Shown here in pieces: positions 17,712 to 58,728 of a DNA stretch of 64,000 bases. The notes beneath the pieces were generated by a model, which was not told where the DNA came from, did not search any database, and saw only the letters and a list, made by a program, of their open reading frames with translations. The stretch is from positions 1,906 to 65,905 of the forward strand of contig JAJDBK010000057.1 in the NCBI GenBank assembly GCA_029261405.1, given 5' to 3'. How positions within the stretch are numbered: the stretch's first letter is position 1; each line of letters begins with the position of its first letter. The position numbers and the translations under genes are program-made. The DNA comes from Nitrospinaceae bacterium. Its GTDB lineage: Bacteria > Nitrospinota_A > UBA7883 > JAJDBK01.

Positions 17712-17716
17712 ATCGG

Positions 17717-36737: not shown

Positions 36738-37718
36738 TTAAGACTTCTCCTCGCTCCAGTCGAATGTGACACGTTCGGATTCGTACCAGACACACGAATT
36801 GTTCATACCCGGATTTTTCCGTCCGATATCGACAGGAATAGAGCTTATCGGCGTTCTTGCCATCTGAAGGAACAGGTCGGCGCGCTCGTCACGACGCTCC
36901 AGGTACTCCTCCACTATTTCGATGGCCTCTCTTCGTGAATGGGCGTTTACGAAAAGGGAGGAATAAAAACCTTTCGCCACCTTGTTCGTATAGGTTACAG
37001 GAGAGCATCCTCTCAACTCCACACTCCAGCACTCCATTATGAGAGGGGAACTGGCTGAATCGGGGTCGTCCCCTTCATCCTCATCCAGATAGAGGTCGTA
37101 GGTGTCGGCCATATCCTCGAAAGCCGTGAGATAATCGACACCAGACTCCCCCTCTATCGGAAGCGGTTCGTGGTAGTGCGGTTTGTCCCAGAAGACCTCA
37201 TGGATGAACATGAAAGGTATTGCGAGTTTTTCAAGCGCCTTCTCCACCTTCTCCGGGTCCTGGTGGTAGACATTAATGGTTTTGTGCTCGTCGAGAAAAA
37301 CTTCGCTCGCCTGCCCTTCGGAGAACAGGCCTATACCTAAAAAGCCATCGTCGGTTACCACGTCCTTCCACTCGTATATCCACGACAACACTTTTTCGCG
37401 GGGTGAAGTGGTTTCGGAGAGGTAGGTGTCGCTTTCCCGGTAATAGTCGCCGGAATGGACTCTGGCCACGAGATATATATCTTTCGGAAGAAGCCTTGAT
37501 AAGGTGGTGAACAGATCCATGATCCGCTCGTGGGAGACTGTGATCTGGTAATGAAAGCAGGTCTCATCCCGAAGGTACCTTGAGTCGTATCCCTCTTTTT
37601 GGGAAAAATGACTCTCCGGGTAAACCCCGAACGGATACACAAAACCGCCCTCGGTTTTCCGGTGGAACAGGCCCTCGACCGGTTGCGCCCTCTCTTTACT
37701 CGGTTTCCTCTCTTCCAT
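36738..37718 (-). CDS. Hypothetical acidic cytoplasmic protein (unknown function)
   Basis: 326 aa ORF with good coding composition, 7 nt upstream of tilS. No recognisable motifs. Confidence 0.5.
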   Translation of the reverse strand: MEERKPSKERAQPVEGLFHRKTEGGFVYPFGVYPESHFSQKEGYDSRYLRDETCFHYQITVSHERIMDLFTTLSRLLPKDIYLVARVHSGDYYRESDTYLSETTSPREKVLSWIYEWKDVVTDDGFLGIGLFSEGQASEVFLDEHKTINVYHQDPEKVEKALEKLAIPFMFIHEVFWDKPHYHEPLPIEGESGVDYLTAFEDMADTYDLYLDEDEGDDPDSASSPLIMECWSVELRGCSPVTYTNKVAKGFYSSLFVNAHSRREAIEIVEEYLERRDERADLFLQMARTPISSIPVDIGRKNPGMNNSCVWYESERVTFDWSEEKS

Positions 37719-37785: not shown

Positions 37786-37880
37786 CTGGTGGCGCCACCA
37801 TATCACCGTGGTCGCGCCACCATATCGCTGTGACCGCGCCACTCGCCGTGGCCGCGCCACTCGCTGTGGCCGCGCCACTT
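37786..37880. repeat. Tandem array of about 5 imperfect 18-22-bp units, each containing the palindrome GTGGC-CGC-GCCAC (or a GTGGTCGCGCCAC variant)
   Basis: Read directly: ccgtggtcgcgccaccatatcg / ctgtgaccgcgccactcg / ccgtggccgcgccactcg / ctgtggccgcgccactt. The array abuts the TAA stop of the REC-PilZ gene. Confidence 0.7.
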
Positions 37881-38637
37881 AGCCGATATTCTCCGGCAGT
37901 TCCACCTTGATACTCTTTATCAGCGTATCCAGTAACGCCTTGTCGTAGGAGTCGATATCCCTGAACTGAACGGCTACCAGGATAAAATTACGCACGTTCG
38001 GATTATCCTTGTCCCGTTCGATCCGGACCAGTTCACCTTTCAGCCGCATGTCACCGGTTTCGACCGATATGGCAACGCTTACTTCGTCGTATATGAGAAT
38101 GCCATCCTGTTTGTTGAAATGAGGGGTTCTGACCATGCAACCTCCATCCGAGATATCTACGAGGGTTGCGGTCTGGACCTTGTTTCCGCCATCAAAAGAG
38201 AGTTGGGCCGGAAGGTCGTTACACGACTTGAAACGCTCTAAAATTCTCCGTTCGCAAGAGAGAAATATTTTCCTTATTTTCTGGATCAGCGTTGATGCGG
38301 AGAAAGGTTTTATCAATACGTCCGAAACCCCGGCCTGAACCGCCGATACCAGAGTGTATTTGTCGTCCCGGCTTGTCATTATCATGAAGGGAATATCTGT
38401 GAGATCGGGATGATTGCGGACCTTCAGGAGAAATTCGTCGCCGGTCATACCCGGCATCTCCCAGTCGCTTATGATCCAGTCGATCTTCTCGCCCGACTCG
38501 ATCAGATCCCACGCCTCCTCGCCGGTCCTTGCCTCCACAACCTTTCGGCAGTTAAGCTGGTCAATGAGGATTTTTTTCGCTACAGTCCTGGGGGTGGGGT
38601 GGTGAGCGGCGATCAGAACGGTTGTATGTCTTAACAT
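37879..38637 (-). CDS. Response regulator receiver fused to PilZ (c-di-GMP-binding) domain
   Basis: 252 aa. Receiver Asp in IISDWEMPGMTG and KPF. PilZ motifs RxxxR (CERRILERF) and DxSxGG (DISDGGCMV). Confidence 0.7.
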   Translation of the reverse strand: MLRHTTVLIAAHHPTPRTVAKKILIDQLNCRKVVEARTGEEAWDLIESGEKIDWIISDWEMPGMTGDEFLLKVRNHPDLTDIPFMIMTSRDDKYTLVSAVQAGVSDVLIKPFSASTLIQKIRKIFLSCERRILERFKSCNDLPAQLSFDGGNKVQTATLVDISDGGCMVRTPHFNKQDGILIYDEVSVAISVETGDMRLKGELVRIERDKDNPNVRNFILVAVQFRDIDSYDKALLDTLIKSIKVELPENIG

Positions 38638-38693: not shown

Positions 38694-39452
38694 TCAGCCA
38701 ATCTTGTCAGGTAACTTAACCTTGACACTCTCTATCAGCTTGAATAACTTTTCCCTGTTCCCGGGAGCCACTTCATTAAACTGGAAGCCGGCCATTACAA
38801 AATCCTTCGATTTCAGATTATCCCTGTCCCTCTCTACACGAACAAGCTCCCCATCGAGGCGAATTTCGTACTGGTCTACCTCGATTACAATGTCAACGGT
38901 ATCATAAACGTTGACGCTCTCACCTTTTCCGAAATGAGGCGTTTTGACCATGCAACCCCCGATGGAAACGTCCACCAGCGAAGCTGACCGGGGTTCCCCG
39001 GCGCCTTCAAAAAAAAGTTGAACCGGATACCTGCTCGAAGCCTTGAAACGCTCCAGCAACCTGCGTTCGCAAGAAAGGAATATCTTCCTCACCTTCTGTA
39101 TAAGCGTTGCGGCGGAGAACGGTTTTATCAGAAAATCGGATACTCCAGCCTGGGCCGCCGTAATAAGAGCGTCCTTGTCGTTCCGGCTCGACATCATCAT
39201 GAATGGTATGTCGGCTGTTTTCGGGTTGTTGCGGATTTTTAGCAGGAATTCGTCTCCGGTCATGCCCGGCATCTCCCAATCGCTTATTATCCAGTCAACC
39301 CTTTCCCCCTTCTCGATCATTCTCCACGCCTCGTCGGCGGTCTTTGTTTCGATCACTTCTCCGCAGTTAAGCTGGTCTACCAGAATCTTCTTCGCTATTT
39401 TCCTTGGTGTGGGGTGATCGTCAGCGATCAGCACAACCGTATGTCGCAACAT
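38694..39452 (-). CDS. Response regulator receiver fused to PilZ domain (tandem paralogue of the preceding gene)
   Basis: 252 aa, same architecture (CERRLLERF, DVSIGGCMV), roughly 60 percent identity to the neighbour by eye. Confidence 0.7.
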   Translation of the reverse strand: MLRHTVVLIADDHPTPRKIAKKILVDQLNCGEVIETKTADEAWRMIEKGERVDWIISDWEMPGMTGDEFLLKIRNNPKTADIPFMMMSSRNDKDALITAAQAGVSDFLIKPFSAATLIQKVRKIFLSCERRLLERFKASSRYPVQLFFEGAGEPRSASLVDVSIGGCMVKTPHFGKGESVNVYDTVDIVIEVDQYEIRLDGELVRVERDRDNLKSKDFVMAGFQFNEVAPGNREKLFKLIESVKVKLPDKIG

Positions 39453-39599: not shown

Positions 39600-40946
39600 A
39601 TGGTTTTTGATCGAAAAAGTGGCGCTACCGCATGGCTCGGAATTGCGGTGGTCTCTGTGGCTTTCATGGGCGTCTACGCCTTCTTTGTGGCCTTGGCCCG
39701 CACACCAGTGATCGGCGCAATGTTCGGCGACCCCGATTTTTTCCGTACCGCCCTCGTAACCCATGTGGTGTTGGCGGTGGTTATCTGGTTTCTGGCGTTT
39801 ATCCTCTTTACCATGCATTACATTACCGCCTCAGTTCCCACCGGCAAGGGGGAGTTTCGGGCGGTGGACGGGGCGGCTATCGGAGTTGCCCTGATAGTTG
39901 CGACACCATTCACAGGCCCTGCGCATCCGATATTAAATAACTATGTTCCGGTACTCGACCGGTGGCTTTACCTGCTGGGAGTGGCGATATTTTTCATCGC
40001 TGTGGCTGTGGCGTTTTTGCTCAGGGCAAGAGCCACCCTCGACTCAGGCGCAAACGGTAATGGCCCGGCGTTGATTACCAGAGGTTCCCTGCTTACTGCC
40101 GGACTTGCCCTGATTTCGGCTATTCTCTGTTTTGTTATCTCCTGGTACGGACTTTCGACAGGTCCTGTTATGGAAGAGTCACAAAGGCGGTTTTATTTCG
40201 AGGTTCTCTTCTGGGGAGGCGGGCACACACTTCAGTTCGCTAATGGTCTGGGGCTTATGGCTGTCTGGTCGATCCTTGCAAGTAAACTTACCAGCGAGAA
40301 CATTCTGGACGACAAGGTGACAAAAGGTCTGCTGGCCGTAATCGCCCTCTTCATAATATCGGCGCCCCTCCAATATTTTATTTACGATCACGATTCGGTA
40401 GAGTTAAGGTCGTTATTTACTTCACTTAAAGGATGGGGACTCTCATTCGGGCCGATCATTCTCGGAGCTGCAATTTTCGTGAAGCGAAAGAACCTGAGCG
40501 AAAACCCGGTGGCGAGCCGGGGTCTTTTTCTTTCGATGTTCCTGTTCGCTCTGGGTGGGGCAATCGCCCTTACTCTAAGCGGTAGCGATACCAGAGTGCC
40601 TGCCCACTACCATGGGGTCATAGGTGGTGTGACCCTCTGTTTCATGACCCTTGCACAGCTTGCGGTAACAGAAAACGGCTGGCTTACCGTATCGGAAAAA
40701 TGGAAAAAAATTCAGATCACCCTCTACGGAATGGGCCAATCCCTCTTCGTTATCGGACTTTACATCGGTGGAACCCGTGGAGCGCAAAGGAAGACATTCG
40801 GCACGTCCCAGCAACTCGACGACGCCATGAAATATTTCGGTATGAGTGTCATGGGGATCGGTGGATTGATGGCGGTGACAAGTGGTGTGTTTTTTGTCAT
40901 TTTCATGCTCAAATCGTTTAACGCCGGAAGAAAAAAGGCGTTATGA
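39600..40946 (+). CDS. Polytopic membrane protein (about 12 TM) with conserved His residues; possibly a cofactor-binding integral membrane subunit
   Basis: 448 aa. Overlaps the next cytochrome c gene by 4 nt, so it is translationally coupled to the cytochrome cluster. Confidence 0.55.
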   Translation: MVFDRKSGATAWLGIAVVSVAFMGVYAFFVALARTPVIGAMFGDPDFFRTALVTHVVLAVVIWFLAFILFTMHYITASVPTGKGEFRAVDGAAIGVALIVATPFTGPAHPILNNYVPVLDRWLYLLGVAIFFIAVAVAFLLRARATLDSGANGNGPALITRGSLLTAGLALISAILCFVISWYGLSTGPVMEESQRRFYFEVLFWGGGHTLQFANGLGLMAVWSILASKLTSENILDDKVTKGLLAVIALFIISAPLQYFIYDHDSVELRSLFTSLKGWGLSFGPIILGAAIFVKRKNLSENPVASRGLFLSMFLFALGGAIALTLSGSDTRVPAHYHGVIGGVTLCFMTLAQLAVTENGWLTVSEKWKKIQITLYGMGQSLFVIGLYIGGTRGAQRKTFGTSQQLDDAMKYFGMSVMGIGGLMAVTSGVFFVIFMLKSFNAGRKKAL

Positions 40947-41257
40947 AAGGTTGGCCTCTTGTCGTAGCGATAGTTCTGGTCACCCCCACAGCAGGATTAA
41001 CGATGGAATCTTACCAGACGTGTATAAAATGCCACGATGAACCGGGTGAAGGCGGATCGCAGTTCGCCCCAGATCTCTCGGAAACGAAATACAGCCTTGA
41101 ACAGTTCACGAAACAGGTCATGAATGGTTCAAAGTGGGCGGGTAAACCTGTCAGAAAATGGAAATACCGTAAAAGAGAGATGCCGGGTGTTGTCGGTCTT
41201 GACGAAAAAGAGGTGCGACTCCTTTACGATTACATTTTATCGAAAAAACCGGACTGA
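40943..41257 (+). CDS. Monoheme cytochrome c (secreted)
   Basis: 104 aa, signal peptide, CIKCHD heme motif. Confidence 0.65.
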   Translation: MKGWPLVVAIVLVTPTAGLTMESYQTCIKCHDEPGEGGSQFAPDLSETKYSLEQFTKQVMNGSKWAGKPVRKWKYRKREMPGVVGLDEKEVRLLYDYILSKKPD

Positions 41258-41365
41258 AAAATCTCTTTTTCCCCTTTTCGTAATTTGGCTGTATCCTATT
41301 AACAAGTATGAAAATTGTGGCGTTTTTGCGCCACGGGTTGTTACTTTTACGAAGGAGATTTTGTT

Positions 41366-41698
41366 ATGAGGAAATTGATGGTGGCTATCTTGTTTGCGGT
41401 GATCGCCGTTGCGTTTACCGCTCCTCCTCTCTTTGCGGGAGACGCTCCGGCCATATATAAAAAATGCAAGATGTGCCACGGCGACGCGGGAAGCGGAAAA
41501 GGTAAATCCGGCCCTGATCTAGCCAAGAGTAGCTGGACCCTGGAACAGTGGACGCAAATTGTGGAACTCGGTAGAAAAGGGTACGCCGACGGTCCCGCAC
41601 AGATGGCCGAATACGAGAACAAGAAGATGATGAAACAGAAGGAGGTCACAGCCGACGACGTAAAAGCCATCTTCGATTATGTGCACTCCGTTAAGTAG
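41366..41698 (+). CDS. Monoheme cytochrome c (secreted)
   Basis: About 110 aa from MRKLMVAIL (AAGGAGA RBS 7 nt upstream), signal peptide, CKMCHG motif. Confidence 0.65.
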   Translation: MRKLMVAILFAVIAVAFTAPPLFAGDAPAIYKKCKMCHGDAGSGKGKSGPDLAKSSWTLEQWTQIVELGRKGYADGPAQMAEYENKKMMKQKEVTADDVKAIFDYVHSVK

Positions 41699-41714
41699 AC
41701 ACATTTTCAGGAAA

Positions 41715-41748
41715 AACCGCTGGTTGTGAAATCTGGCGGTTTTTTTTC
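41715..41748 (+). terminator. Rho-independent terminator (8-bp stem AACCGCTGG/CTGGCGGTT, 9-nt loop, T8 run)
   Basis: Hairpin followed by TTTTTTTT immediately after the second monoheme cytochrome gene. Confidence 0.6.
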
Positions 41749-41756
41749 TGACATAA

Positions 41757-42575
41757 ATGAATATCAAGTTAAAACAGCGAGCCTTTCTGGTTGTCGCCCC
41801 GGCGCTTATGGTGTTGGCGGCGTTGTTGATCTTTCCCGAAGCTCTATTTTCACCAGGTGAGATCAACCGTAAACATAAGGAGATAAAAAACTGTTTCACC
41901 TGCCATATCCCCTTTGTCAAGCCGGATAGCGGGACGTGCGGAACTGGTGGATGTCACACCCCTGAAAAGTGGAAAGAGAAAAAAGCGGCGTCGCGGAGCC
42001 ATATAACAGATGAGGCTTGCACAAAATGCCATACCGAACATCAAGGCGCCAGAAGATTGATCACCGTGGTCCCCGCCCACACAACGGATATTGATATAAA
42101 GAGTGATTGCACAAAATGCCATGTCATCGGCAAAAGCCATCTGCCGGTAAAAAAAGAGGCGTGTGAGTTATGCCATTCACTCGACGCATGGAGACCGGTA
42201 CCCAAATTCGATCACAAGGCGCTGAAGGGGAAAGGCAAATGCGCCGACTGCCATAAACCATCGAAGTTTCATTTTACGACCAAAAAAGAGTGTGAGACCT
42301 GCCACACCTCAAAGAGATGGTCACCTTCCTCCATGCGCCACCGGTTCCCTGTGCAACACAGATCGCGCAAGGGGAAGCGGAAATGCGATACATGCCACCC
42401 GGTTTCGCTTGCGGCGTATGACTGCTATACAGGTTGTCACAAACACAAGCCGAAAAAGGTTAAGCGAAAACATGTCAAACACAAGATCAAGGATTTCGCC
42501 GACTGTGTAAAATGCCACCCCACCGGCAGAGAGAAGGAAGGAAAGTACCGTAAGAAAAGACGGAAAAAGAGATGA
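41757..42575 (+). CDS. Multiheme c-type cytochrome (8 canonical CxxCH plus 2 non-canonical CX3-4CH motifs) with a strongly basic Lys/Arg-rich C-terminal tail
   Basis: 272 aa. Heme motifs CFTCH, CGTGGCH, CTKCH (x2), CELCH, CADCH, CETCH, CDTCH, CYTGCH, CVKCH. The C-terminus is KHKPKKVKRKHVKHK...KYRKKRRKKR. Confidence 0.75.
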   Translation: MNIKLKQRAFLVVAPALMVLAALLIFPEALFSPGEINRKHKEIKNCFTCHIPFVKPDSGTCGTGGCHTPEKWKEKKAASRSHITDEACTKCHTEHQGARRLITVVPAHTTDIDIKSDCTKCHVIGKSHLPVKKEACELCHSLDAWRPVPKFDHKALKGKGKCADCHKPSKFHFTTKKECETCHTSKRWSPSSMRHRFPVQHRSRKGKRKCDTCHPVSLAAYDCYTGCHKHKPKKVKRKHVKHKIKDFADCVKCHPTGREKEGKYRKKRRKKR

Positions 42576-43168
42576 TTACCGTCACAAAAGTCTTTGGAAA
42601 GTTGTCGCTGTTATTCGTCATTGTCGTCCTGACTGTTGTAATAACAATCGTTACGGAGCTTCTCATCGACAACCTGACACTTCAGGCCAGAGAGTTTCGT
42701 CACCTGATGAAACACTCCATGGGCAATATCGGAGTTTTATTCATCCTTGTTTCGATAGCGGGATATTCCCTTAAAAAACGGTTCGGTATTGGTCGTTTCA
42801 GGATCAACGAATGGCTCGATATCCACCAATGGCTAGCCGTGACCGGGGTGGTTCTGGCGGGTATCCATTCCGGCGCTCATTTCAACGCGCTACTTCCCCG
42901 ATTGACATCGATAGCCACTATCGTATGTCTCGTAAGCGGATTTGTCGGTCGGCATATATACATCAACACCAAAAAGGAGATCGCAACAAGGAGGGTCACG
43001 ATGGTGGAGGATGGATTATCCGAAGCGGTGATCGCCGAAAAACTTACATACGCCGCAGTGACCGCCGACGCCTTGTCCAACTGGCGCTACATACACAGAA
43101 TATTCTCGGTCACCTTCGCAACCCTGGTGGTGGCCCATGCTGTAACCGCCCTGCTCTTCGGAGGATAA
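42572..43168 (+). CDS. Small integral membrane protein (4-5 TM) with TM-embedded His residues, possibly a b-type cytochrome/quinol-interacting subunit
   Basis: 198 aa. Overlaps the multiheme cytochrome gene by 4 nt. His residues in predicted helices (IHQWLAV, GIHSGAH, VAHAV). Confidence 0.45.
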   Translation: MITVTKVFGKLSLLFVIVVLTVVITIVTELLIDNLTLQAREFRHLMKHSMGNIGVLFILVSIAGYSLKKRFGIGRFRINEWLDIHQWLAVTGVVLAGIHSGAHFNALLPRLTSIATIVCLVSGFVGRHIYINTKKEIATRRVTMVEDGLSEAVIAEKLTYAAVTADALSNWRYIHRIFSVTFATLVVAHAVTALLFGG

Positions 43169-43188: not shown

Positions 43189-44889
43189 CTAAAAGTCGTC
43201 GAAATCATCATCCATAGGGATTATCGAATCGACATCTTTTGACTTTTGTCTTGAAGCCGGGATAACGACCGGGGTGGATCTTCGTATCGTCTCACGGGGC
43301 GGAGAAATCGTGCGAACCGATGAACCTGCGCCGGGAGGTTGACCTCCGGCCGTGCCTACCCTTGACGCGGCTCCATCCACAAGCCTGTAGAGGTCACTGA
43401 CCACAGCCTTGAGCGCTTCGGCCTGCGCGGAAAGCTCTTCAGACGATGCGGCCGACTCTTCAGCTGTGGCGGCGTTTTGCTGTGTAACCTTGTCCATTCG
43501 GGAAACGGAACCACTGGCCTGATCCACCCCCTGAGCCTGAAGTTGCGACGACTTATTGATATTGTTGACAATATCAGCGATGGCGCCAACCTTGCCTAAA
43601 ATCTCATTTAACACCTTGCCAGACTGATCCGCCATTTCACCCCCTGTGGCCGCCTTATTTACGGCGTTATCGATCAGGACAGCAGTGTCTTTCGCCGCAT
43701 TCGACGAGCGTTGAGCCAGGTTACGAACCTCCTCGGCGACAACGGCAAACCCTTTGCCATGTTCTCCGGCCCGGGCCGCCTCCACAGCGGCGTTTAACGC
43801 CAGCAGGTTCGTCTGGAACGCTATAGCCTCAATAACCTTGATAATATTGGAGATCTCCTTTGAAGAGTGGTTGATCTCATGCATCGCCTCAATCATGCCC
43901 TCAACGACACGGCTCCCCCCTTCGGCGGACCTGAGTGTGTCGCTGACCAACGTATTGGCTTTATTAGCGTTGTTGGCGTTATCTCTCGACTGGGAGGCTA
44001 TTTCCGTGAGAGTCGCGGTTGTCTCCTCAAGGGAAGAAGCCTGTTCCATCGCGCCTTTGGCCATTGACTGGGATGATGAGGATATTTCGCTGGCGGCTAT
44101 CCCCAACTGTACGCCCCCTTCATCCAGACGTTTGATAATCCCGGAGATAGGGAGTGTAATACCTCTGACCACAACAACCGCCACCGACACCAATGCCGCA
44201 AGAATCAGAACTGTAACGTACAAGGCGGTGGTTTTCGAGTTCTCGGCTTCCGCAAGGGTATTTTGGGAGACCGTCGATATCCCCAAAGCCTTCTCTTGCG
44301 CGTCGCTGGCGGTTTCGACGAAGGAGTTGAGCTTCCGCTGAAACTCTGAAAGACCGGTTGTGACAAACTTGAGTTCAACCGCCGCCTTGTCCGCCCCCTC
44401 CTTTACAGTCCGTACAATGGGCAGGGCTTCCCGTTTGACACTCTCCAGTATGTCATCTACCTCAAAGAGCAGGGTGTCGAGGTCCATATCCTCCTCTTCA
44501 CTCAGTTCGGCAAACTTTGTCACAATCTCCTCGAATGTAATTTCGAGTATCTTCATATCCTGGGCGGTCGATTTCATGGCCGGAGCGAGTTTCTCCTCCG
44601 TAGAAGTCGAAAGGGCTATCGCTTCGTTGGACGCTTCCGAGGTATTGTTCGCCACCCGCTCCATCAGCTTTTTCACCTGACCGGAACTTGTGTCGATATC
44701 GGAAACACCGTCCGATAATCTTGTCAGCGAAACATACAGAATGGCGGCCAGAGCTATGTTGGCGAGGATCGAAAATCCGAAACCGATTATAAGCAGTTTT
44801 TTTACGCCAAGACGGCTTATAAACGAACTGTCACCCCCGGCGCCCGCCGATGCGTTTACGCTCATCGGACTATTTAACAGATTGCTCAA
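43189..44889 (-). CDS. Methyl-accepting chemotaxis protein
   Basis: 566 aa. HAMP plus the highly conserved MCP signalling domain ([16 protein letters not shown] ... [39 protein letters not shown]). Confidence 0.85.
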
Positions 44890-45763
44890 ACATCTTGACG
44901 GCGGTGTTCATCTCGCTGAGCAGAGGAAGATTCAATTTCGCGGCGCTTTCTATGTCAGCGGTCGGGATCGTAGCCGATGAAGACGCCACTACCTTGTCCA
45001 GCAGTGGTTTGTACGATTGCCACAGACTGCCAACCGTCCCGAGCTGGTTTCGTATATCGGCGTCCCGGGTTCCTGGCAACTCCAGGTCGGGGTCTCCATC
45101 CAAAAGACCTTTAAGGGTTCTGTCAAACAACGACGCTGTCTTCTTGAGGTTAAGCCTGTTTTTATCCCCATCGATAGCCAACGCCACAAGCAGTAGCTCC
45201 TTGGTCATTTTCTGGGTCAGCATTCTCTGTTTACCTGCAAGGTTGATAACTACCGCCATACCCGGTTTCATGGTGGAGCCGCCAGTGACTTTCGCCGCGT
45301 TTTCAAACATCTTCACACATCGGTTCATGTTTTTGAGTAGTGGCAGGTTTTCCGCCGCAATCTTTCCCAGGATCTCAGGGGATGTATCCCCTCCGAGTAC
45401 CGCCTCTATATATCTACGGAACCCGGTCCAGAGGGTTTTAACTTTTTTGAGTTGTTTGACTATTTTCGGTTTCCCCGACGCCACGAGTCCGAGGTCCGCG
45501 TCTCCTGCGATAAGACCTTTCAACGTTTTGTCAAAGAGGGTGGCGGTTTTGAATAGACTCTCCTTGTTCCCCTCAACATTGATCCCTTTGGCGATAAGGA
45601 AAGACTCTTTACTCATCTTCTGGGTCAACATCCGCTGTTTACCGGAGAGGTTGAGTATGACAGCGAATTCCTGATCGGTAACCGACCAGGCGTTCCGCCC
45701 TAAAGCCGGTATCAACAACATTGTAAATAGAGTTGTAAGAATTGTCAGTTTGACCGGTTTCAT
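44870..45763 (-). CDS. Periplasmic sensor-like protein with two PilJ/NarX P-box-type repeats ([24 protein letters not shown])
   Basis: 297 aa, signal peptide. The duplicated [10 protein letters not shown] motif is characteristic of the PilJ/NIT-type sensor N-terminal domain. Overlaps the MCP start by 20 nt. Confidence 0.55.
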
Positions 45764-48597: not shown

Positions 48598-48665
48598 ATC
48601 ATCAGACGCGTGGCATCATCAGACGCGTAGCATCAGCAGATGCGCGGCATCAGCAGATGCGCGGC
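48598..48665. repeat. Four tandem 17-bp units (atcatcagacgcgtggc x2, then atcagcagatgcgcggc x2). The last copy encodes the HypE C-terminal PRIC plus stop on the minus strand.
   Basis: Read directly. The hypE stop (TGA, complement of 48650-48652) lies inside the array. Confidence 0.8.
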
Positions 48666-49669
48666 AACAGTTCACCTTCTAGTCGTGAAACTATTCTCAA
48701 GCCACCTACTGTGGACCTTATTGTCACCCGTCCTTCGATCCCTTCGACGACCTCTCCGATAATCGCCGAGTCTTCTCCCTCCGGGTGGGATCGCATGATG
48801 GAGAGCGTTTTTTCCGTCTCCCGAGCCGGGACAAAAACCGTCATCTTCCCTTCGTTTGCCACCATCAACGGATCGAGGCCAAGGATTTCACACGCCGCCA
48901 TCACCTCCCGTTTCACCGGTATCGCCGACTCGTCCAGCCGGATCGACACCTTTGAACTTTCGGCAATTTCAACCATTGATGTCGCCAGCCCACCACGGGT
49001 CGGATCGCGCATGACATGAATATTAATCCCGGCTGAAACGAGGTTTGCAACCATATGGTTGAGGGAAGCGGTATCACTTCTGACGAGGGATGTCAGTCTG
49101 AAATCCTCCCTCGCAAGCATTACCGCTGAACCGTGATCGCCAACAGCGCCGTTGATTATCACCACATCCCCCACCGTCGCGTTTGTAGCGGAAATATTCA
49201 GATCGGAGCGAGCCACACCTATTCCGGCTGTGTTGATGAAAATTTTATCGCACGATCCACGAGGCGTTACTTTCGTATCTCCGCAGACGATTTTTACCCC
49301 CGCTTTTATGGCCGCTTTGCCTGCGGATGTGACCACTTTTGCGAGGTCGTCCATCGGCAGACCCTCCTCCAGTATCAGGGCGAGGCTGAGCGCCACCGGT
49401 TGCGCCCCGCGCATGGCCAGATCGTTCACTGTGCCATTCACCGAAAGGTCGCCGATGTCACCCCCCGGAAAAATGATCGGATCAACAACATAACTGTCGG
49501 TGGAAAAGAACATCTCACCATCAACCTGCGCGATGGAACTTGCGTCCTCCAGCGCGCCTTCAACAATACTATCTCCGAGAGCCGGAATAACGACCTTTTC
49601 GATAAGGCGCTGACTCATGCGACCGCCGGAGCCGTGCCCCAGCAGAACCATCTCGTCCCGTTGTTTCAT
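48650..49669 (-). CDS. hypE: [NiFe]-hydrogenase maturation protein HypE
   Basis: 339 aa, AIR-synthase-like fold, ends in the hallmark PRIC motif. Confidence 0.9.
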   Translation of the reverse strand: MKQRDEMVLLGHGSGGRMSQRLIEKVVIPALGDSIVEGALEDASSIAQVDGEMFFSTDSYVVDPIIFPGGDIGDLSVNGTVNDLAMRGAQPVALSLALILEEGLPMDDLAKVVTSAGKAAIKAGVKIVCGDTKVTPRGSCDKIFINTAGIGVARSDLNISATNATVGDVVIINGAVGDHGSAVMLAREDFRLTSLVRSDTASLNHMVANLVSAGINIHVMRDPTRGGLATSMVEIAESSKVSIRLDESAIPVKREVMAACEILGLDPLMVANEGKMTVFVPARETEKTLSIMRSHPEGEDSAIIGEVVEGIEGRVTIRSTVGGLRIVSRLEGELLPRIC

Positions 49670-50766
49670 ACAGTCTGGTGTCCATATTTGTAGGCCGCCG
49701 AGCAGGTTCCTTCGGAGGAGACCATACAGGCGCCTATAGGGGTTTCAGGGGTGCAGGCGTTTCCGAATATCCTGCAATCGGCTGGTTCTTTAAGCCCTCT
49801 GAGGATTTCACCGCAAAGGCACGCCTTGTTCTCTTTTACATCGGGGAAGGTGATGGAGAATTTTATTGCCGCATCGTATCGGGAGTAGGCGGGAGCGATG
49901 GAAAGGCCGCTATCGGGAATATCTCCCAGACCGCGCCAGCGGGCGGACGATTTGACAAAAACAGTATTAAGTGTCTCCTGAGCTTTCCGGTTCCCCTCCG
50001 GTCGCACGACCCTGCGATATTGATTCTCCACCTCCGCCCGTCCATCCACAATCTGTTTACAGAGCATGGTCACACCTTGCAGGATGTCGAGCGGTTCAAA
50101 ACCTGTAATAACACACGGGATCTTCCGTTTGGCCACCAGTGGTCGATACCCCTCCTCCCCTATGATAGCCGAGACGTGGGCGGGGCAGATGTAACCGTCT
50201 ATCTTAAGCTCCCCTTCGGTAAGGGCGTCCATCGGTTCAGGCATGACCTTGTGCGCTGTCAGCGCTGAAAAGTTTTTTACACCATCCCGCTCGGCTGTGA
50301 GGATAGCCACAGCCACCGTCGGCGCTGTTGTCTCGAATCCGACACCCAGAAAGACAAACTCCCGACCATGCTCCTTTTCGGCCATGGCAACTGCGTCGAT
50401 CGGGGAGTATACGATCCTGATATCGGCGCCCTTCGCCCGTTCTCTGGCCAGCGTGGAGTTCGACCCGGGAACTCTGGCCATGTCTCCGAAGGTCACGATA
50501 ACGATATCATTCCTGTGAGAGAGAGATATGGCGGCATCGACGTAACCCATGGGGGTGACACATACGGGACAGCCTGGTCCCGACACCAGCCTTACGTTAT
50601 CGGGAACATAAGCCGATTTAAGACCATGCCTGTATATGGCCATGGTGTGGGTGCCACACACCTCCATTAATGTTATGGGACGAGGCAGTTTTTTCGATGT
50701 CAATCGCAACTTTACCGCCAGGCTTTCAGCAAGTTCCCGGTCCCGGAAAGCGTCAAGATATTTCAT
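49666..50766 (-). CDS. hypD: [NiFe]-hydrogenase maturation protein HypD
   Basis: 366 aa with CGTHT, GPGCPVC and C-terminal Cys motifs. Confidence 0.9.
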   Translation of the reverse strand: MKYLDAFRDRELAESLAVKLRLTSKKLPRPITLMEVCGTHTMAIYRHGLKSAYVPDNVRLVSGPGCPVCVTPMGYVDAAISLSHRNDIVIVTFGDMARVPGSNSTLARERAKGADIRIVYSPIDAVAMAEKEHGREFVFLGVGFETTAPTVAVAILTAERDGVKNFSALTAHKVMPEPMDALTEGELKIDGYICPAHVSAIIGEEGYRPLVAKRKIPCVITGFEPLDILQGVTMLCKQIVDGRAEVENQYRRVVRPEGNRKAQETLNTVFVKSSARWRGLGDIPDSGLSIAPAYSRYDAAIKFSITFPDVKENKACLCGEILRGLKEPADCRIFGNACTPETPIGACMVSSEGTCSAAYKYGHQTV

Positions 50767-50986
50767 CGTCTGTCTTCTCTAAAATCTCCCGCATGAGCGA
50801 AAGAGTCTTCTCCGCCTCCGCCCCGTCCATCCGGGCGATGGCAAGGCCAGCGTGGGCCATGATGTAGTCGCCGATCTTCACGTCATCGAGAGCCATGAGG
50901 CTGACCGATTTACGGACTCCATCGATCTCGGCTACGCAGGAAAATTCCGATATCCCTACAACTTTCATCGGTACCGCGACACACAT
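50753..50986 (-). CDS. hypC: Hydrogenase assembly chaperone HypC/HupF
   Basis: 77 aa starting MCVAVP (the essential Cys2). Confidence 0.85.
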   Translation of the reverse strand: MCVAVPMKVVGISEFSCVAEIDGVRKSVSLMALDDVKIGDYIMAHAGLAIARMDGAEAEKTLSLMREILEKTDDEIS

Positions 50987-51004
50987 TTTTTTATTTCCTC
51001 TTGT

Positions 51005-53278
51005 TTACATTCGTCGGGCGGCGACAATAGCCTGTCCAAGACTTATCCCGCCATCGTTCGGAGGCACTCTTCCGTGCCGCAACACTTTAAATCCGCTATT
51101 TGTGAGACGTGAACCGAGCGTATCGGAAAGATACCTGTTCTGGAAACATCCGCCACTTAAAACCAGACGCGACAGACCACTTGCGCCACGAATCTGTTGC
51201 GCCATTCTGAACGCGCCTTCCACAACGGTATTGTGGAAACGGGTAGCCATCACACCTGGTGGGGTTTTGGCAAGTATGTCGGCTATCACGCCTCTGAAAG
51301 CTGGACGGAACGAGAGATTCATCCTGTTACCTTTTTCCTCGATGTCTACAGGGTAACCGCATTCCACCTCCGGCTCAACGAGAGCTTCAAGGGCCATGAC
51401 CGGCTGGCCTTCAAAACCGGCATTGACACATAATCCCATAAGGACCGCCGCCACATCAAAAACCCTTCCGGCGCCGTGCGAAAGAGGGGTGTTGATCCCC
51501 TTGTGGTACATTCTCAAAACAGCCCGCCTCGTCTCTTCCGGTATCGACTGAACCCAGGGGGCGTTTTGCAGTGGATGGTCTTCGCCGTAAAGCTCGTCAA
51601 TAAGAGCGATGGCGATCCGCCACGGTTCTTTTATCGCCCGGTCACCACCCGGCAGGGGGAGCGGATCAATTGCGCCAGCCCGGACAAAACCTTCGGCGCT
51701 ACCTGTAAGAAATTCACCACCCCATATGGCGCCATCGTCTCCGTAACCTGTGCCGTCGAAGACAATGCCGATACTCTCGCCCTCAAGCGCCCCTCTTTCA
51801 ACCAATGCGGAGACGAAGTGGGCGTGATGATGCTGAACCGGAACAAGAACCGCCGACCCGTATCTCTCCTTCGCCAACCTCCCCCCCGCCGAATCGGGAT
51901 GTTTGTCGAAAGCGACCACCTGCGGCTGACCTGCGTCGATCAGTTTCATAAATCGATCCAGTGAAGACTCAAGATAGGTAATGGACCGCTCCCACGAAAG
52001 GTCGCCGATATGCTGGCTGATAAAAGCCTGGTCGTCCTTGATGACGCAGAATGTGTTTTTCAGGTCCCCCCCCATGGCAAGCGTCGGAGGGTAGGCCTTG
52101 TCGAGCAGAATAGGCGTTGGTGTATAACCGCGCGACCTCCGTATTATCACAGGACCGTGGGTCATCGGCAGTTCCACCGAATCGTCGGTTCTGTGTTCTA
52201 TCGCCCGGTCGTGGGTAAGGTAAGCGTCGGCAATACCGGAAAGACCAGCCCTCGCCTCCTCTTCGGTATGTACGATCGGATCGTCAGAAAGGTTCGCCGA
52301 TGTCATGACAAGAGCGGTAAAACCCCCCTCCCGCAATATCAGGTGATGAAGAGGTGTGTAGGGGAGCATGATACCGAACCGTCCGCAACCGGGGGCCACT
52401 CCGGGCAAAGAGAACGTGTCGAGTTTTTCAGCAAGAACAATCGGATGGGGAACAGATTCCATCAGCCCGGCGGTAAAAGTGTCGATCCTTGCGATGGTTT
52501 TTGCTGTGGCGAGGTCAGAAACCATTAGCGCGAACGGTTTTTCGTCCCGTTTTTTCCGGCGACGCAATCGGTTTACCGCAGATTCGTTGTTGGCGTCTAC
52601 CGCAAGGTGATATCCGCCGATCCCTTTTGTCGCCACAATACCGCCATCGGCAATGGCTGTTACGCCAGCTTTAACAGAATCGACTCCCGCGACCGGTTCA
52701 AACCTCTCATCCCGGAATACCAGTGTCGGCCCGCACTCCGGGCAAGCTACAGGCTGAGCGTGGAACCGGCGCTCCTCCGGGTTCTCATACTCCTCCCGGC
52801 ACTTCTTGCACAGCTTGAAGTCAGCCATAGTTGTATTCGGACGATCATAAGGAACATCGAGGACAATGCTGTAACGGGGACCGCAGTTGGCGCAGTTTGT
52901 AAAGGGGTAGCGATAGCGGCGGTCCGAAGGGTCAAAAAGCTCAGTCAGGCAATCGGGGCATACATCGCAGTCGGGTGATATCAGAGCCGACCTCTCCACG
53001 CTTGATTCGCTTTTTTCGATAATAAAACCGCTCTCCCCACGCTCCTCTTTATCTTCTGACTCTACGGAAACGATATGAGCCAACGGAGGGGTTTTTGTGA
53101 CGAGATCGTTCCCGAATCTGTCGATAGCCTCCGCCGACCCCTCGACATGAATAAAAACTCCCCTGCCGTTATTTAAAACTCCCCCCGACAGATTCCTCTC
53201 CCTGGCGATCCGGTAGACAAACGGACGAAACCCGACCCCCTGCACAATACCGGTAACAGAAAACTCCCTACGAGCCAT
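51005..53278 (-). CDS. hypF: Carbamoyltransferase HypF
   Basis: 757 aa. Acylphosphatase domain, two CxxC...CxxC zinc fingers, YrdC and Kae1-like domains. Confidence 0.9.
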   Translation of the reverse strand: MARREFSVTGIVQGVGFRPFVYRIARERNLSGGVLNNGRGVFIHVEGSAEAIDRFGNDLVTKTPPLAHIVSVESEDKEERGESGFIIEKSESSVERSALISPDCDVCPDCLTELFDPSDRRYRYPFTNCANCGPRYSIVLDVPYDRPNTTMADFKLCKKCREEYENPEERRFHAQPVACPECGPTLVFRDERFEPVAGVDSVKAGVTAIADGGIVATKGIGGYHLAVDANNESAVNRLRRRKKRDEKPFALMVSDLATAKTIARIDTFTAGLMESVPHPIVLAEKLDTFSLPGVAPGCGRFGIMLPYTPLHHLILREGGFTALVMTSANLSDDPIVHTEEEARAGLSGIADAYLTHDRAIEHRTDDSVELPMTHGPVIIRRSRGYTPTPILLDKAYPPTLAMGGDLKNTFCVIKDDQAFISQHIGDLSWERSITYLESSLDRFMKLIDAGQPQVVAFDKHPDSAGGRLAKERYGSAVLVPVQHHHAHFVSALVERGALEGESIGIVFDGTGYGDDGAIWGGEFLTGSAEGFVRAGAIDPLPLPGGDRAIKEPWRIAIALIDELYGEDHPLQNAPWVQSIPEETRRAVLRMYHKGINTPLSHGAGRVFDVAAVLMGLCVNAGFEGQPVMALEALVEPEVECGYPVDIEEKGNRMNLSFRPAFRGVIADILAKTPPGVMATRFHNTVVEGAFRMAQQIRGASGLSRLVLSGGCFQNRYLSDTLGSRLTNSGFKVLRHGRVPPNDGGISLGQAIVAARRM

Positions 53279-53930
53279 TTGTCAAATCCCGCAGGAACTG
53301 ATACCACTCCTCCAGCCCGGCGCCGCTTTTAGCCGACAGCCTGAAACGTTTCTGCGCAGGGTTAACCTTGCGGGCGTACTCCATAGCCTGATCCGGATCG
53401 AAATCGAGATAAGGTAAAAGATCGGTTTTGGTGAGAACCATTGCGTCGGCCACCCGGAACGCTTTCGGATATTTTACCGGTTTGTCCTCCCCTTCCGTTA
53501 CCGACAGGAGAGTTATCTTCATCTGTTCACCCAGATCGTAAGAAGCCGGACAAACAAGGTTGCCGACATTTTCGATGAAGAGCATATCGACCGATCCGAG
53601 ATCGAGAGTATCGAGCGCCTGAAACGTCATTCCGGCGTCGAGATGGCACGCGCTTTGTGTGTTTATCTGTGTAACGGGAACACCGGTCTCCATGATCCTC
53701 CGGGCGTCATTATCGGTCCGCTGATCCCCTTCAATCACCGCAAACTTTATTTCAGACTTCAGGTCGGTGAGAGTTTTTACCAGCAGGGTGGTTTTCCCGG
53801 CGCCCGGCGAGCTTAGAAGGTTTACGACGATAACCCCCGACTCCTTAAATATCAATTGGTTATTAGCCGCCAGCGCGTCATTCTTCGCCAGAATATCCTT
53901 CTTGACCGTAATAACTCTTGGATCGTTCAT
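53268..53930 (-). CDS. hypB: Hydrogenase nickel-incorporation GTPase HypB
   Basis: 220 aa with GSPGAGKTTLL P-loop. Confidence 0.85.
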   Translation of the reverse strand: MNDPRVITVKKDILAKNDALAANNQLIFKESGVIVVNLLSSPGAGKTTLLVKTLTDLKSEIKFAVIEGDQRTDNDARRIMETGVPVTQINTQSACHLDAGMTFQALDTLDLGSVDMLFIENVGNLVCPASYDLGEQMKITLLSVTEGEDKPVKYPKAFRVADAMVLTKTDLLPYLDFDPDQAMEYARKVNPAQKRFRLSAKSGAGLEEWYQFLRDLTNGS

Positions 53931-54265
53931 GAAAGCTCCACACTACGCACCGAAAGCTCCTCCCCTTGCAACAAGCCGGCGGGGCCGCCACAGCCGGGAC
54001 AGAGAAAATAGCGATCCTTCGGCGAAAAGGAATTTTCACATGAGGGACAAGACGCCACCGCTTCTATACTGTTCACCACGAGTTCGCTCCCCGCCACTAT
54101 TTCGCTGGTGGCGCAAGCCTCGTAACAGAAGAGTACCGAATCACTCATAACCCCCGAAAGCTCCCCTATATCGACATTGACCTTAAAAACCTTGTCGGCG
54201 TTCGCCTCTCTCGCCGTCTCCTCGGCTATCTCCACAATGCTCATGGCGATCGACATTTCGTGCAT
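53927..54265 (-). CDS. hypA: Hydrogenase nickel-insertion protein HypA
   Basis: 112 aa, MHEMSIA N-terminus (Ni-binding) and CPSC...CPGC zinc finger. Confidence 0.85.
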   Translation of the reverse strand: MHEMSIAMSIVEIAEETAREANADKVFKVNVDIGELSGVMSDSVLFCYEACATSEIVAGSELVVNSIEAVASCPSCENSFSPKDRYFLCPGCGGPAGLLQGEELSVRSVELS

Positions 54266-54852
54266 TATCCACCGGAAACAGGCAAGTAGTGTAGCTGTAC
54301 CATACCACCACCAAAACTGTGGTGGCTCACAAACTCCAGGGAATGACGTTTTGTGACCCCGGCGAAAAGCGGGCGCCCTGAGCCGAGGAGAACCGGCGCC
54401 ATAGTCACTATCATCTGATCGATGAGACCAGCATCCATAGCCTGACGAATCAGGTCACCCCCATCAATGTAGACATCCTTTTCACCAGCCGCCTCACGAG
54501 CCTTGGCTACCATTGACGAGATATCACCCGTAACGGGCGCCACCGAGGATGGCGTCGGATCAAGCGGACGGTGGGTTGCCACCAGAACGGGACGATCACC
54601 GTATGGCCATGCGCCTCCAAATCCTTGTACCACATCGCAGGTTCGCCGCCCCATAAGTAGCGCCCCTACATCACTCATGAATTCCTCGAAGCCAACAACG
54701 CCTCTATCCTGATCGGTCCGCTCACGCTCATTTGCCGATTCAGCCCCGGCTCCGGGTAACCAGGAGAGGTCATCTCCCGGACCGGCGATGAAACCGTCCA
54801 GGGAGCATGCGATATAAACCCGTACACGAGAATTTTCACTCATGGATACCAT
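54265..54852 (-). CDS. Dihydrofolate-reductase-like / RibD C-terminal domain family protein
   Basis: About 195 aa with a YIACSLDGFIAGP motif typical of the RibD_C/DHFR-like family. The start is uncertain (no clear SD). Confidence 0.55.
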   Translation of the reverse strand: MVSMSENSRVRVYIACSLDGFIAGPGDDLSWLPGAGAESANERERTDQDRGVVGFEEFMSDVGALLMGRRTCDVVQGFGGAWPYGDRPVLVATHRPLDPTPSSVAPVTGDISSMVAKAREAAGEKDVYIDGGDLIRQAMDAGLIDQMIVTMAPVLLGSGRPLFAGVTKRHSLEFVSHHSFGGGMVQLHYLPVSGG

Positions 54853-55065
54853 TTTACCAAAACAGTTATTTAAATAATCAAAATAAGTCAAAAATTTCAT
54901 CCTGTTTTATTGCTCAATTATTTAAAAGAGCCTATATTCTAACTAAAGAAGGAAGTTTCATAAAAACAATACGTTATGCAAGGATAGACGATCCTGTATA
55001 TCGGGGGGCGGAAAGAGACCCTCCCCCGGATGATACGAAGCGCTGGTCATTTGCAATAAAAGGCG

Positions 55066-55881
55066 ATGGGAATCGGTAATATGACTTCACACACAGCGTC
55101 TGAAAAAGAAGTTTACGTCTTCGTGCGGGTTCGTTCGATATTTGCCTGCGCAATGCACTGGGTTCTTTTCGTCGCCATCACTGTTCTTATCGTCACAGGG
55201 TTTTATATCGGATACCCCCTTCTTCTCCATGAACATGGGGAGGCTGTGGATATTACGCTCATGGCCGATATAAGGTTTATCCATTTCATGGCCGCCTGGG
55301 CGCTCTTTATCGGGTCGTTGGTAAGGCTCTACCTCTCTTTCACTGTGTCGTGCAACAAGGACTTTCTGCAGTTTATCCCCACTCCCCACAACGTAATATC
55401 CGCAATCAAGCTGGCCTGGTTCTACGTTACGTTGCGTGGTCCGCACGAACATTACCGATTCGTAAACCCGCTTGGCGGAGGGGTGGGCATCTTTACCATG
55501 TGTGTTCTCTTCGCGGTTCAGATGGTGACAGGTCTTGCCATGTATCTTGAAGGCGCCGACCCGTCTATCTGGGGGTGGGCCTTTTTCGTGCGGAACCTTA
55601 GTGAAGATCTGATGGGTGGGAATCAGGGAGTGCGGGTAATACATCATGTTGCGATGTACGCCCTTATGGCGGTTATCGTTATCCATGTCTACATGCAGAT
55701 ATGGAAAAACTCGTTTTTCACAGAAGCTGATATCTCCTCCATCGTCGGAGGTTACAAGATTTTCCCGTACAGTCAGATCGGGCATTTTTCCGACTGGTAC
55801 GGCCTGAACATAAACGAACCCCCGCCGTCAAAAGAAGAGATGACACGGGCGTCCACAGAATCGACAGAGATAAAAATATAA
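55066..55881 (+). CDS. Ni/Fe-hydrogenase b-type cytochrome subunit (HyaC/CybH family), copy 1
   Basis: 271 aa, 4 TM, with conserved His ligands (HW..F, HHVAMYALMAVIVIHVY). Confidence 0.75.
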   Translation: MGIGNMTSHTASEKEVYVFVRVRSIFACAMHWVLFVAITVLIVTGFYIGYPLLLHEHGEAVDITLMADIRFIHFMAAWALFIGSLVRLYLSFTVSCNKDFLQFIPTPHNVISAIKLAWFYVTLRGPHEHYRFVNPLGGGVGIFTMCVLFAVQMVTGLAMYLEGADPSIWGWAFFVRNLSEDLMGGNQGVRVIHHVAMYALMAVIVIHVYMQIWKNSFFTEADISSIVGGYKIFPYSQIGHFSDWYGLNINEPPPSKEEMTRASTESTEIKI

Positions 55882-55912
55882 CCGAAATTGGAGAAGAGGA
55901 AGGGAGGATCGC

Positions 55913-58710: not shown

Positions 58711-58728
58711 CGAGAGGGAGTAAACCTG

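Follow-up and report, generated by a model that had tools for sequence, protein, structure and literature searches.

A possible two-module respiratory locus in a Nitrospinaceae bacterium: a haem-copper oxidase relative lacking two metal-B histidines beside a predicted dihaem-b/multihaem-c pair

The three histidine (His) ligands of the second active-site metal (CuB or FeB) are treated as a defining trait of the haem-copper oxidase (HCO) superfamily. In its oxygen reductases, the active-site tyrosine that is cross-linked to the helix-VI His lies four residues after it (His+4) in the A and B families and in helix VII in the C family. In Geobacter sulfurreducens, CbcL joins a HydC/FdnI-type dihaem cytochrome b to a multihaem cytochrome c. 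Among the nitric oxide (NO) reductases of the HCO superfamily, eNOR is derived from the B family, and the Rhodothermus marinus enzyme has been characterized (Murali et al., 2024; PMC11214002). The same work points to gNOR as the earliest described case of an HCO family in which Asp has replaced an active-site His, and covers NOD, which is derived from qNOR and for which dismutation of NO to N2 and O2 has been proposed (PMC11214002). Here we describe five open reading frames (ORFs), p1 to p5, at positions 39600-43168 (all on the + strand) of a 64-kb window, i.e., the whole stretch of DNA analyzed (64,000 nucleotides of contig JAJDBK010000057.1 from a Nitrospinaceae bacterium), which was also the span covered by our gene-absence searches and by our description of the flanks. 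A previous sequence-only reading had taken the five genes to form a single conduit from quinol to a multihaem cytochrome; the five ORFs and all of the haem motifs that it listed were indeed present. The explanation that we favor, tentatively and with slightly less than even confidence, is that the locus holds two adjacent respiratory modules, A (p1-p2-p3), a cytochrome-c-linked HCO relative, and B (p4-p5), a dihaem cytochrome b with a multihaem cytochrome c, which might form a chain from quinol to a terminal reductase. On this view the locus resembles a terminal branch of respiration and no outward electron conduit. Interest in it shifts from the decahaem p4 and its basic tail to p1, a stand-alone HCO relative without a canonical binuclear center.

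The p1 gene (39600-40946, + strand) encodes a full-length, 448-aa homologue of HCO subunit I, of the terminal-reductase type. It matched Pfam COX1 (PF00115) at 41.6 bits (cut-off 34.8) over profile positions 5-428 of 436, and an AlphaFold (AF2) model built from 24 homologues had a pLDDT of 88.8 and 12 long helices, in agreement with the 12 transmembrane segments noticed previously. When the model was compared by Foldseek with subunit I of aa3, bo3, ba3, and cbb3 oxidases, TM-scores of 0.62-0.76 were obtained at 12-17% identity, with values of ~0.74 for cytochrome c oxidase (CcO), bo3, and ba3. The p1 family profile found an Aquifex terminal oxidase (7deg_A) in the PDB at 5e-17; the single sequence had no match there. 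Scans of Pfam and NCBIfam with E up to 1 returned COX1 and sub-threshold noise only, and no match to NrfD, NapH, or cytochrome-b families, so that the proposed role of p1 as a cytochrome-b/NrfD-like quinol partner was not borne out. NCBIfam added nothing useful for either p1 or p5, no exact record existed for the window protein, and a cluster look-up gave no names.

Many loci with a p1 homologue also carry, nearby, a longer second HCO gene with the helix-VI motif GH[SP]SQQ, and Gln in place of the cross-link Tyr is diagnostic of eNOR (PMC8756737). A hidden Markov model (HMM) of the p1 family scored 145-193 bits on these eNOR-like neighbors, ~5 bits on A-type oxidases of the same loci, and not at all on a cbb3 CcoN, and hhalign aligned the p1 family with the eNOR-like neighbors at a probability of 100% (E 9e-44, 429 columns). 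The comparison covered the HCOs of the fetched loci only. Because both the HMM scores and hhalign favor the eNOR-like sequences, we place the p1 family, on profile comparison, as the sister of eNOR subunit I in the B-family-derived part of the superfamily and not in the cbb3/cNOR branch; p1 is thus a paralogue of eNOR subunit I. Two other assignments, a C-branch "N2O reductase-like" HCO (Murali et al.) and cbb3 CcoN, the name given by NCBI to relatives, were rejected since the family HMM scores on eNOR-like sequences only.

Residue conservation was then taken from 75 members of the p1 family. Exactly four His were invariant, H55 in helix II, H209 in helix VI, and H336 and H338 in helix X, together with E201, W205, Q212, Y337, R397, and K398. 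In alignments with eNOR-like and A-type sequences, H55 and H338 correspond to the ligands of the low-spin haem, H336 to the ligand of the high-spin haem, and H209 to the helix-VI ligand of CuB/FeB, while R397-K398 form the basic pair at the haem propionates that is Arg-Arg in other HCOs. The full set of three CuB/FeB His was not present in p1: H209 is the only one, with no invariant His among the 75 sequences beyond the four named. The helix-VII His-His (SEHH or SAHH in eNOR-like sequences, WAHH in A-type) aligns with Q258-Y259 of p1, and across the family these positions hold Ile, Leu, or Val followed by Tyr (80%) or Phe (15%). Three independent alignments put hydrophobic residues or Tyr at the His-His positions; in a HMMER alignment of the family with 7deg_A the register was shifted by two residues, again with no His at the pair. 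At His+4, p1 has F213 (Phe in 66 of the 75), neither the Tyr of the oxidases nor the Gln of eNOR, and whereas eNOR-like sequences carry Gln at both His+3 and His+4, the p1 family (GHxLQF) carries it at His+3 only. Y259 occupies a His-His position and not that of the C-family cross-link Tyr, and eight residues are deleted before helix X relative to other HCOs. As judged from these alignments, the p1 family is without two of the three metal-B ligands and gains no conserved ligand in their place. A His-to-Asp swap of the gNOR type, which the "YDHD" of p1 might bring to mind, was discarded, since the His of this motif is not conserved and its Asp residues are not either.

The resemblance of p1 to eNOR is thus extensive, comprising the 12-helix fold, the low- and high-spin haem ligands, the helix-VI His, Gln at His+3, and a basic pair at the propionate site, and in other genomes the two families often share an operon. 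However, p1 differs from eNOR in the helix-VII His-His, replaced by Ile, Leu, or Val (Gln in the window) and Tyr or Phe, in having Phe and not Gln at His+4, in being ~60-120 residues shorter with the eight-residue deletion before helix X, and in its partner, which is a monohaem cytochrome c next to p1 and a cupredoxin (COX2-type) subunit II in eNOR. Like p1, gNOR derives from the B family and has an incomplete His triad, but it has lost one His and gained a carboxylate ligand, whereas the p1 family has lost two and has no conserved ligand in their place; gNOR also has a cupredoxin-fold subunit II. Finally, the pairing of a subunit-I-type protein with a co-translated monohaem cytochrome c recalls cNOR (NorBC) and cbb3 (CcoNO), although p1 falls outside the C branch and has no FeB site of three His and Glu.

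The partner of p1 is p2 (40943-41257, + strand; 104 aa), a monohaem class I cytochrome c with the motif CIKCH, which overlaps p1 by 4 nt (ATGA). The clade of the window comprises the loci L001-L003, L057, L082-L084, and L088-L092, and in 9 of the 10 that have downstream sequence a p2 orthologue lies directly 3' of the p1 orthologue. C27, C30, H31, and M80-P81 of p2 are invariant, as expected of a His/Met class I cytochrome c, and the match to Pfam Cytochrom_C was 3e-7. A profile of six p2 sequences recovered generic class I cytochromes and CcoP domains only, not FixO or NorC, and Pfam FixO had no p2 match; the likeness of p2 to NorC is marginal, a weak single-sequence match not having been strengthened by the profile search. 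The third gene, p3 (41366-41698, + strand; 110 aa, CKMCH), encodes a periplasmic monohaem class I cytochrome c (Cytochrom_C, 1e-11). A GGAG ribosome-binding site precedes the ATG taken as its start; the ORF list instead starts it at a TTG at 41315. The sequence-only reading had p2 and p3 as two secreted monohaem cytochromes c. Export would fit the hydrophobic N-terminal segment seen in p2, p3, and p4 alike, the N-terminus of p3 being signal-peptide-like with a typical cleavage context (...PLFA/GD, cleavage at the slash).

The two closest relatives, L083 and L082 (59 and 56% identity), both carry a p3 orthologue (48 and 44%) in third place, and the L082 cluster stops after this second cytochrome c; p1-p2-p3 is a three-gene unit conserved in the closest relatives. 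In another member of the clade, L084, a p1/p2-type pair ends a COX3-SCO1-COX2-COX1-CtaA-CtaB operon. Homologues of eNOR, COX2, CtaA, CtaB, SCO, and NirS were all absent from the 64-kb window, where the p1 family, which keeps both haem sites strictly conserved, stands alone with its own cytochromes c, as it does in this lineage.

A further gene of the clade is u326 (36738-37718, - strand), encoding a 326-aa conserved cytoplasmic protein of no known family, tied to p1 by synteny only. In eight clade loci (L001, L003, L057, L082, L083, L089, L090, and L092) the HCO-like gene has a u326 orthologue (46-58% identity) as its immediate upstream neighbor, transcribed the other way, and the upstream order ABC_tran_2-TilS-...-u326 is common to L083 and the window. 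The protein is acidic, has several invariant His and one invariant Cys, and had no match in Pfam, NCBIfam, or the PDB; it might work together with p1. In the window, u326 is displaced from p1 by two tandem paralogous response regulators of 252 aa each (37879-38637 and 38694-39452, - strand), with receiver (REC) and PilZ domains, which are not found at that position in related loci.

The p1 family is widespread. A word-indexed search gave 236 homologues above threshold; species-representative genomes yielded at least 578 loci, and metagenome contigs at least 570 matches. Hosts include Nitrospinota, Nitrospirota, deltaproteobacterial lineages, and many Gamma- and Betaproteobacteria, with Thioalkalivibrio sulfidiphilus, Woeseiaceae, Thiogranum, and Rhodoferax among those named. 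NCBI names many of the 236 "cbb3-type cytochrome c oxidase subunit I," a label that is probably wrong because the family groups with eNOR-like sequences and lacks the metal-B site; metagenomic counts of high-affinity oxidases may be inflated as a result. The genes around 80 genome loci were clustered and representatives scanned against Pfam. Recurrent neighbors were heme O synthase (CtaB), heme A synthase (CtaA), SCO1/SenC, COX2 and eNOR-like subunit I, cytochrome b-ferredoxin-FlpD fusions, NirS, haem-d1 biosynthesis, hemerythrin, Crp/Fnr regulator, NifU, and Mrp genes. A neighbor-joining listing separated the clades of the family: Gamma- and Betaproteobacterial members and some deltaproteobacterial ones lie in or beside eNOR operons, in a deltaproteobacterial clade heme O synthase and a cytochrome c come after the HCO-like gene and eNOR is absent, and the window clade forms a further group, with its monohaem cytochrome c immediately 3' of the HCO-like gene. 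A p1-family gene occupies the end of the eNOR II-eNOR I-heme o synthase-Sco1 operon in L005, L008, L011, L016, L029, L032, L033, L037, L039, L049, and L077; p1 and its clade are not in this position. Large fusions of a cytochrome b N-terminal domain, a 4Fe-4S dicluster domain, and an FlpD (MvhD-like) domain were seen between eNOR and the HCO-like gene, upstream of the latter, in L029, L032, L033, L037, L039, L049, and L077. Comparable cytochrome b/FlpD-type proteins have been named "Cytbc1-like" and a supercomplex has been speculated upon (bioRxiv 10.64898/2026.01.22.701106).

That same preprint contains the one probable earlier mention of the p1 family that our literature search returned. It describes in Ferrigenium straubiae an operon of eNOR II, eNOR I, heme o synthase, Sco1, and cyt b/FeS, followed by a hypothetical protein, an "eNOR scaffold protein," PerM, and a second cyt b/FeS, the first five components being called "a very common observation" (bioRxiv 10.64898/2026.01.22.701106). 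The "eNOR scaffold protein ... of unknown function" is gene 2878407321, annotated as hypothetical protein / K02274; it was transcribed under autotrophic conditions and was in the proteome during denitrifying Fe(II) oxidation, and the HCO analysis is credited to author J.H. (bioRxiv 10.64898/2026.01.22.701106). The gene order in F. straubiae is that of L037 and close to that of L029, L039, and L077, in which the last HCO gene belongs to the p1 family. From operon position and annotation only, the preprint gene is probably a p1-family member. Like p1, the "eNOR scaffold protein" is COX1-homologous (K02274), but p1 falls in a separate clade, is part of no eNOR operon, and is accompanied by cytochromes c of its own.

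The name raises a serious alternative, though in our estimation an unlikely one, namely that p1 is a non-catalytic assembly scaffold or cofactor-maturation factor for an eNOR or haem-a oxidase encoded elsewhere, much as NifEN serves nitrogenase. Such a protein would hold haem o or haem a or pre-assemble subunits, and the cytochromes c would be unrelated to it or would poise its redox state. The loss of two of three metal-B ligands would suit this role, as would the presence of the family in many eNOR II-eNOR I-heme O synthase-Sco1 operons or beside CtaA/CtaB, and it is a COX1-like gene at that very operon position that received the name in the 2026 preprint. However, no eNOR, cta, or SCO gene was found within the 64 kb, and both the window clade and the deltaproteobacterial clade lack an adjacent eNOR. 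Moreover, translation of p1 is coupled to that of a conserved monohaem cytochrome c of its own, which suggests a redox role. The invariance of H209, Q212, W205, and Y337 from Nitrospinota to Gammaproteobacteria also exceeds what a passive scaffold would need. Should p1 nevertheless be an assembly scaffold, the biogenesis of NO reductases would involve a factor of a new kind.

Returning to the two-module explanation, the boundary between the modules is marked by the 58-nt p3-p4 gap (41699-41756), which holds a strong hairpin followed by U8 (41707-41751, + strand), with the start of p4 eight bases past the U run. The minimum free energy of the hairpin was -19.2 kcal/mol (z = -4.6), and 0 of 200 shuffles folded as well. 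The element looks like a terminator or attenuator; therefore, p1-p3 and p4-p5 may be distinct units or may differ in their expression. The p2-p3 gap, whose entire 108 nt fold at z = -3.4, has a GC-rich hairpin of its own, a weaker one (GTGGCG...CGCCAC, 41315-41336, + strand). In the window clade, p4/p5 followed the p1 orthologue in 0 of the 9 other loci with downstream sequence. The clade comparison and the p3-p4 hairpin ruled out the five genes as one conserved operon, and with it the sequence-only view of the cluster as a single unit; instead, modules A and B were shown to be independently conserved.

In module B, p4 (41757-42575, + strand; 272 aa) encodes a membrane-anchored cytochrome c of the c3/c7 class, which scored above the cut-offs for Pfam Cytochrome_C7, Cytochrom_CIII, and c3_2. 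It carries eight CXXCH motifs, CGTGGCH (CX4CH), and CYTGCH (CX3CH), i.e., up to 10 haem sites as predicted from motifs, and 22 His, a number sufficient for bis-His ligation; ten haem motifs within 272 residues cannot be a chance outcome. Homologues of p4 were few and shared a C-terminal module (...CHP...Y.CY(T)GCHEH...DC..CHPTGR). Both non-canonical motifs noticed previously are thus real. CX4CH is a classical cytochrome c3 motif and is kept in the closest p4 homologue; more distant homologues have the canonical CYGCH where p4 has CX3CH. The basic tail was also confirmed, with 22 Lys or Arg against 4 Asp or Glu in the last 45 residues. Its proposed role in binding surfaces did not survive comparison, since the C-terminal tails of p4 homologues are mostly acidic, not basic. 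The tail is lineage-specific and, with its coding sequence partly overlapping the purine-rich ribosome-binding region of p5, probably incidental.

The last gene, p5 (42572-43168, + strand; 198 aa), overlaps p4 by 4 nt (ATGA). A word-indexed homologue search returned p5 itself only, and an exhaustive HMMER search returned 286 remote relatives, a family of ~190-aa membrane proteins in which H85, H99, H175, and H189 were invariant among 40 sequences. These form two pairs, H85/H99 and H175/H189, spaced i,i+14 in model helices 78-100 and 164-195 of a five-helix AF2 model (pLDDT 90.4), which agrees with the earlier description of a small protein of four to five transmembrane segments with intramembrane His, coupled to p4. 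The p5 sequence scored 24.9 bits against DUF4405 (cut-off 26.7). Among 40 relatives, 16 matched Ni_hydr_CYTB (the HydC/FdnI family; best 2e-8), 12 matched DUF4405, and 6 matched Ferric_reduct, and the p5 profile weakly matched the transmembrane domain of NOX5 in the PDB (E 0.09). A Foldseek search with p5 gave nothing significant. On this pattern p5 is predicted to be a dihaem cytochrome b of the b561, FdnI-HydC, or ferric-reductase-domain type. Elsewhere, a p5-like ORF lies directly upstream of a p4 homologue in L085, L086, and L087, and an HCO-like gene was absent from all of these other p4+p5 occurrences. In L085 (2525-6251), the p5-like/p4-like pair is preceded by genes for a small ferredoxin and a pyridine-nucleotide-disulfide oxidoreductase, a context that suggests a cytoplasmic, NAD(P)H-linked donor to the dihaem-b protein and not quinol.

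Because of its His pattern, the Pfam matches of p5 relatives, and the pairing elsewhere, p4+p5 may fairly be called "split CbcL-like"; here the sequence-only reading stood for p4 and p5, and it failed for p1. As in CbcL, a dihaem b (p5 relatives match PF01292) and a multihaem c would be combined for electron transfer between membrane and periplasm. Unlike CbcL, p4 and p5 are separate polypeptides with a gene order that varies among genomes, and p5 has five helices with its i,i+14 His on helices 3 and 5, in a ferric-reductase-domain-like manner. A larger proposal, that all five genes make up one Geobacter Cbc/CbcL-type conduit from quinol to the multihaem cytochrome, with p1 oxidizing quinol and the basic tail binding surfaces, seems to us improbable. 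The dihaem-b His pattern and HydC/FdnI-family relatives of p5, the c3/c7-class p4 with its N-terminal anchor and strongly basic character, and the conserved p4-p5 pairing all fit such a conduit. However, p1 matched COX1 and no NrfD, NapH, or cytochrome-b family, the five genes are no conserved unit and are divided by a terminator-like element, and the tail is absent from p4 homologues and partly overlaps the p5 ribosome-binding region. In addition, no outer-membrane porin or Omc-type gene was found in the flanks, where the neighbors are REC-PilZ, MCP (methyl-accepting chemotaxis protein), PilJ, and TilS genes.

If the locus does consist of two respiratory modules, p1 would bind two haems, a low-spin one through H55/H338 and a high-spin one through H336. 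On the periplasmic side, its dedicated His/Met monohaem cytochromes, p2 and p3, would donate electrons, which would pass from the low-spin to the high-spin haem, where a small oxidant would be reduced without a second metal, in a pocket lined by His209, Gln212, Trp205, and Tyr259 in its place. NO is our leading guess for the substrate because of the eNOR ancestry and the nir, hemerythrin, and Fnr neighborhoods of relatives; O2, H2O2, N2O, and nitrite are also candidates. In module B, p5 would be reduced by quinol or from the cytoplasm and would in turn reduce the periplasmic decahaem p4, which, on adjacency only, may feed p3 and p2, so that the membrane pool would be linked to the HCO-like site independently of bc1. 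This flow from B to A rests on adjacency in one genome, because p4/p5 are not found by other p1 orthologues and the hairpin intervenes. As to the chemistry, it is conceivable, though on the present sequence evidence unlikely, that the family is catalytically active without CuB/FeB, reducing or dismutating NO or another small oxide in a cytochrome-fed His-Gln-Tyr-Trp pocket.

Several points weigh against this explanation. To our knowledge, the second metal is considered essential in all characterized NO reductases and oxidases of the superfamily, and we know of no precedent for haem-only reduction of NO or O2 in the HCO fold. The function of the p1 family is inferred from sequence, structure model, and gene context, and the match of the single p2 sequence to the NorC-like chain 4xyd_B was only marginal (E 0.008). 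There was no FNR/Dnr-type box upstream of p1, matches across the window being at chance level. The absence of eNOR covers the 64-kb window only, so that an eNOR elsewhere in the genome is possible. As described above, p4/p5 did not follow p1 in the other clade loci, and a terminator-like hairpin parts them from p3. Finally, the name "scaffold" implies a non-catalytic role (bioRxiv 10.64898/2026.01.22.701106).

A last alternative, that the p1 haem pocket serves a non-reductive reaction, i.e., dismutation of NO to N2 and O2, oxidation of haem o towards haem a that needs no O2 and passes the electrons to the cytochromes c, or sensing of NO or O2, can appeal to NOD as an HCO with an altered site and a proposed different reaction (PMC11214002), to the source of O2 for anoxic haem-A synthesis having been raised as unsolved (bioRxiv 10.64898/2026.01.22.701106), and to the frequent CtaA, CtaB, and hemerythrin genes beside the family, but it is pure inference, a dismutase or sensor would need no two dedicated cytochromes c, and the window is without cta genes, which makes it very improbable.

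With regard to the two-module explanation, the p1 family is of interest in that it has lost two of the three His treated as a defining trait of the superfamily, yet is widespread. If catalytic, it would carry out an unrecognized terminal reaction for inventories of the nitrogen or oxygen cycle. It would then be the first superfamily member shown to function without a binuclear site, the HCO scaffold could work without the second metal, and a metal-B-less type would exist in hundreds of denitrifying and sulfur-, iron-, and nitrite-oxidizing species.

The genes that flank the locus lie on the opposite strand, with the two REC-PilZ regulators upstream and, downstream, a methyl-accepting chemotaxis protein (43189-44889, - strand) that overlaps by 20 nt a gene for a periplasmic protein (44870-45763, - strand) with two PilJ-type four-helix-bundle sensor domains. 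This MCP/PilJ pair is convergent with p5, and PilJ-type sensor domains include nitrate-binding sensors. Farther away, two adjacent ORFs of 158 and 168 aa (11052-12031, + strand) resemble NirD/L/G/H genes (siroheme decarboxylase, AhbA/B-like), counterparts of which adjoin nirS clusters elsewhere. Three genes at 16686-21306 (- strand) form a molybdopterin oxidoreductase cluster, in which an ORF of 241 aa separates the catalytic subunit (955 aa) from a DmsC-type membrane anchor. Putative hyp-type maturation genes (48650-54265) precede genes for putative large, small, and cytochrome-b subunits of a [NiFe] hydrogenase and a protease (55066-59918); the whole cluster (48650-59918) was read from ORF sizes and N-terminal sequences only and, if correct, suggests an H2-using organism.

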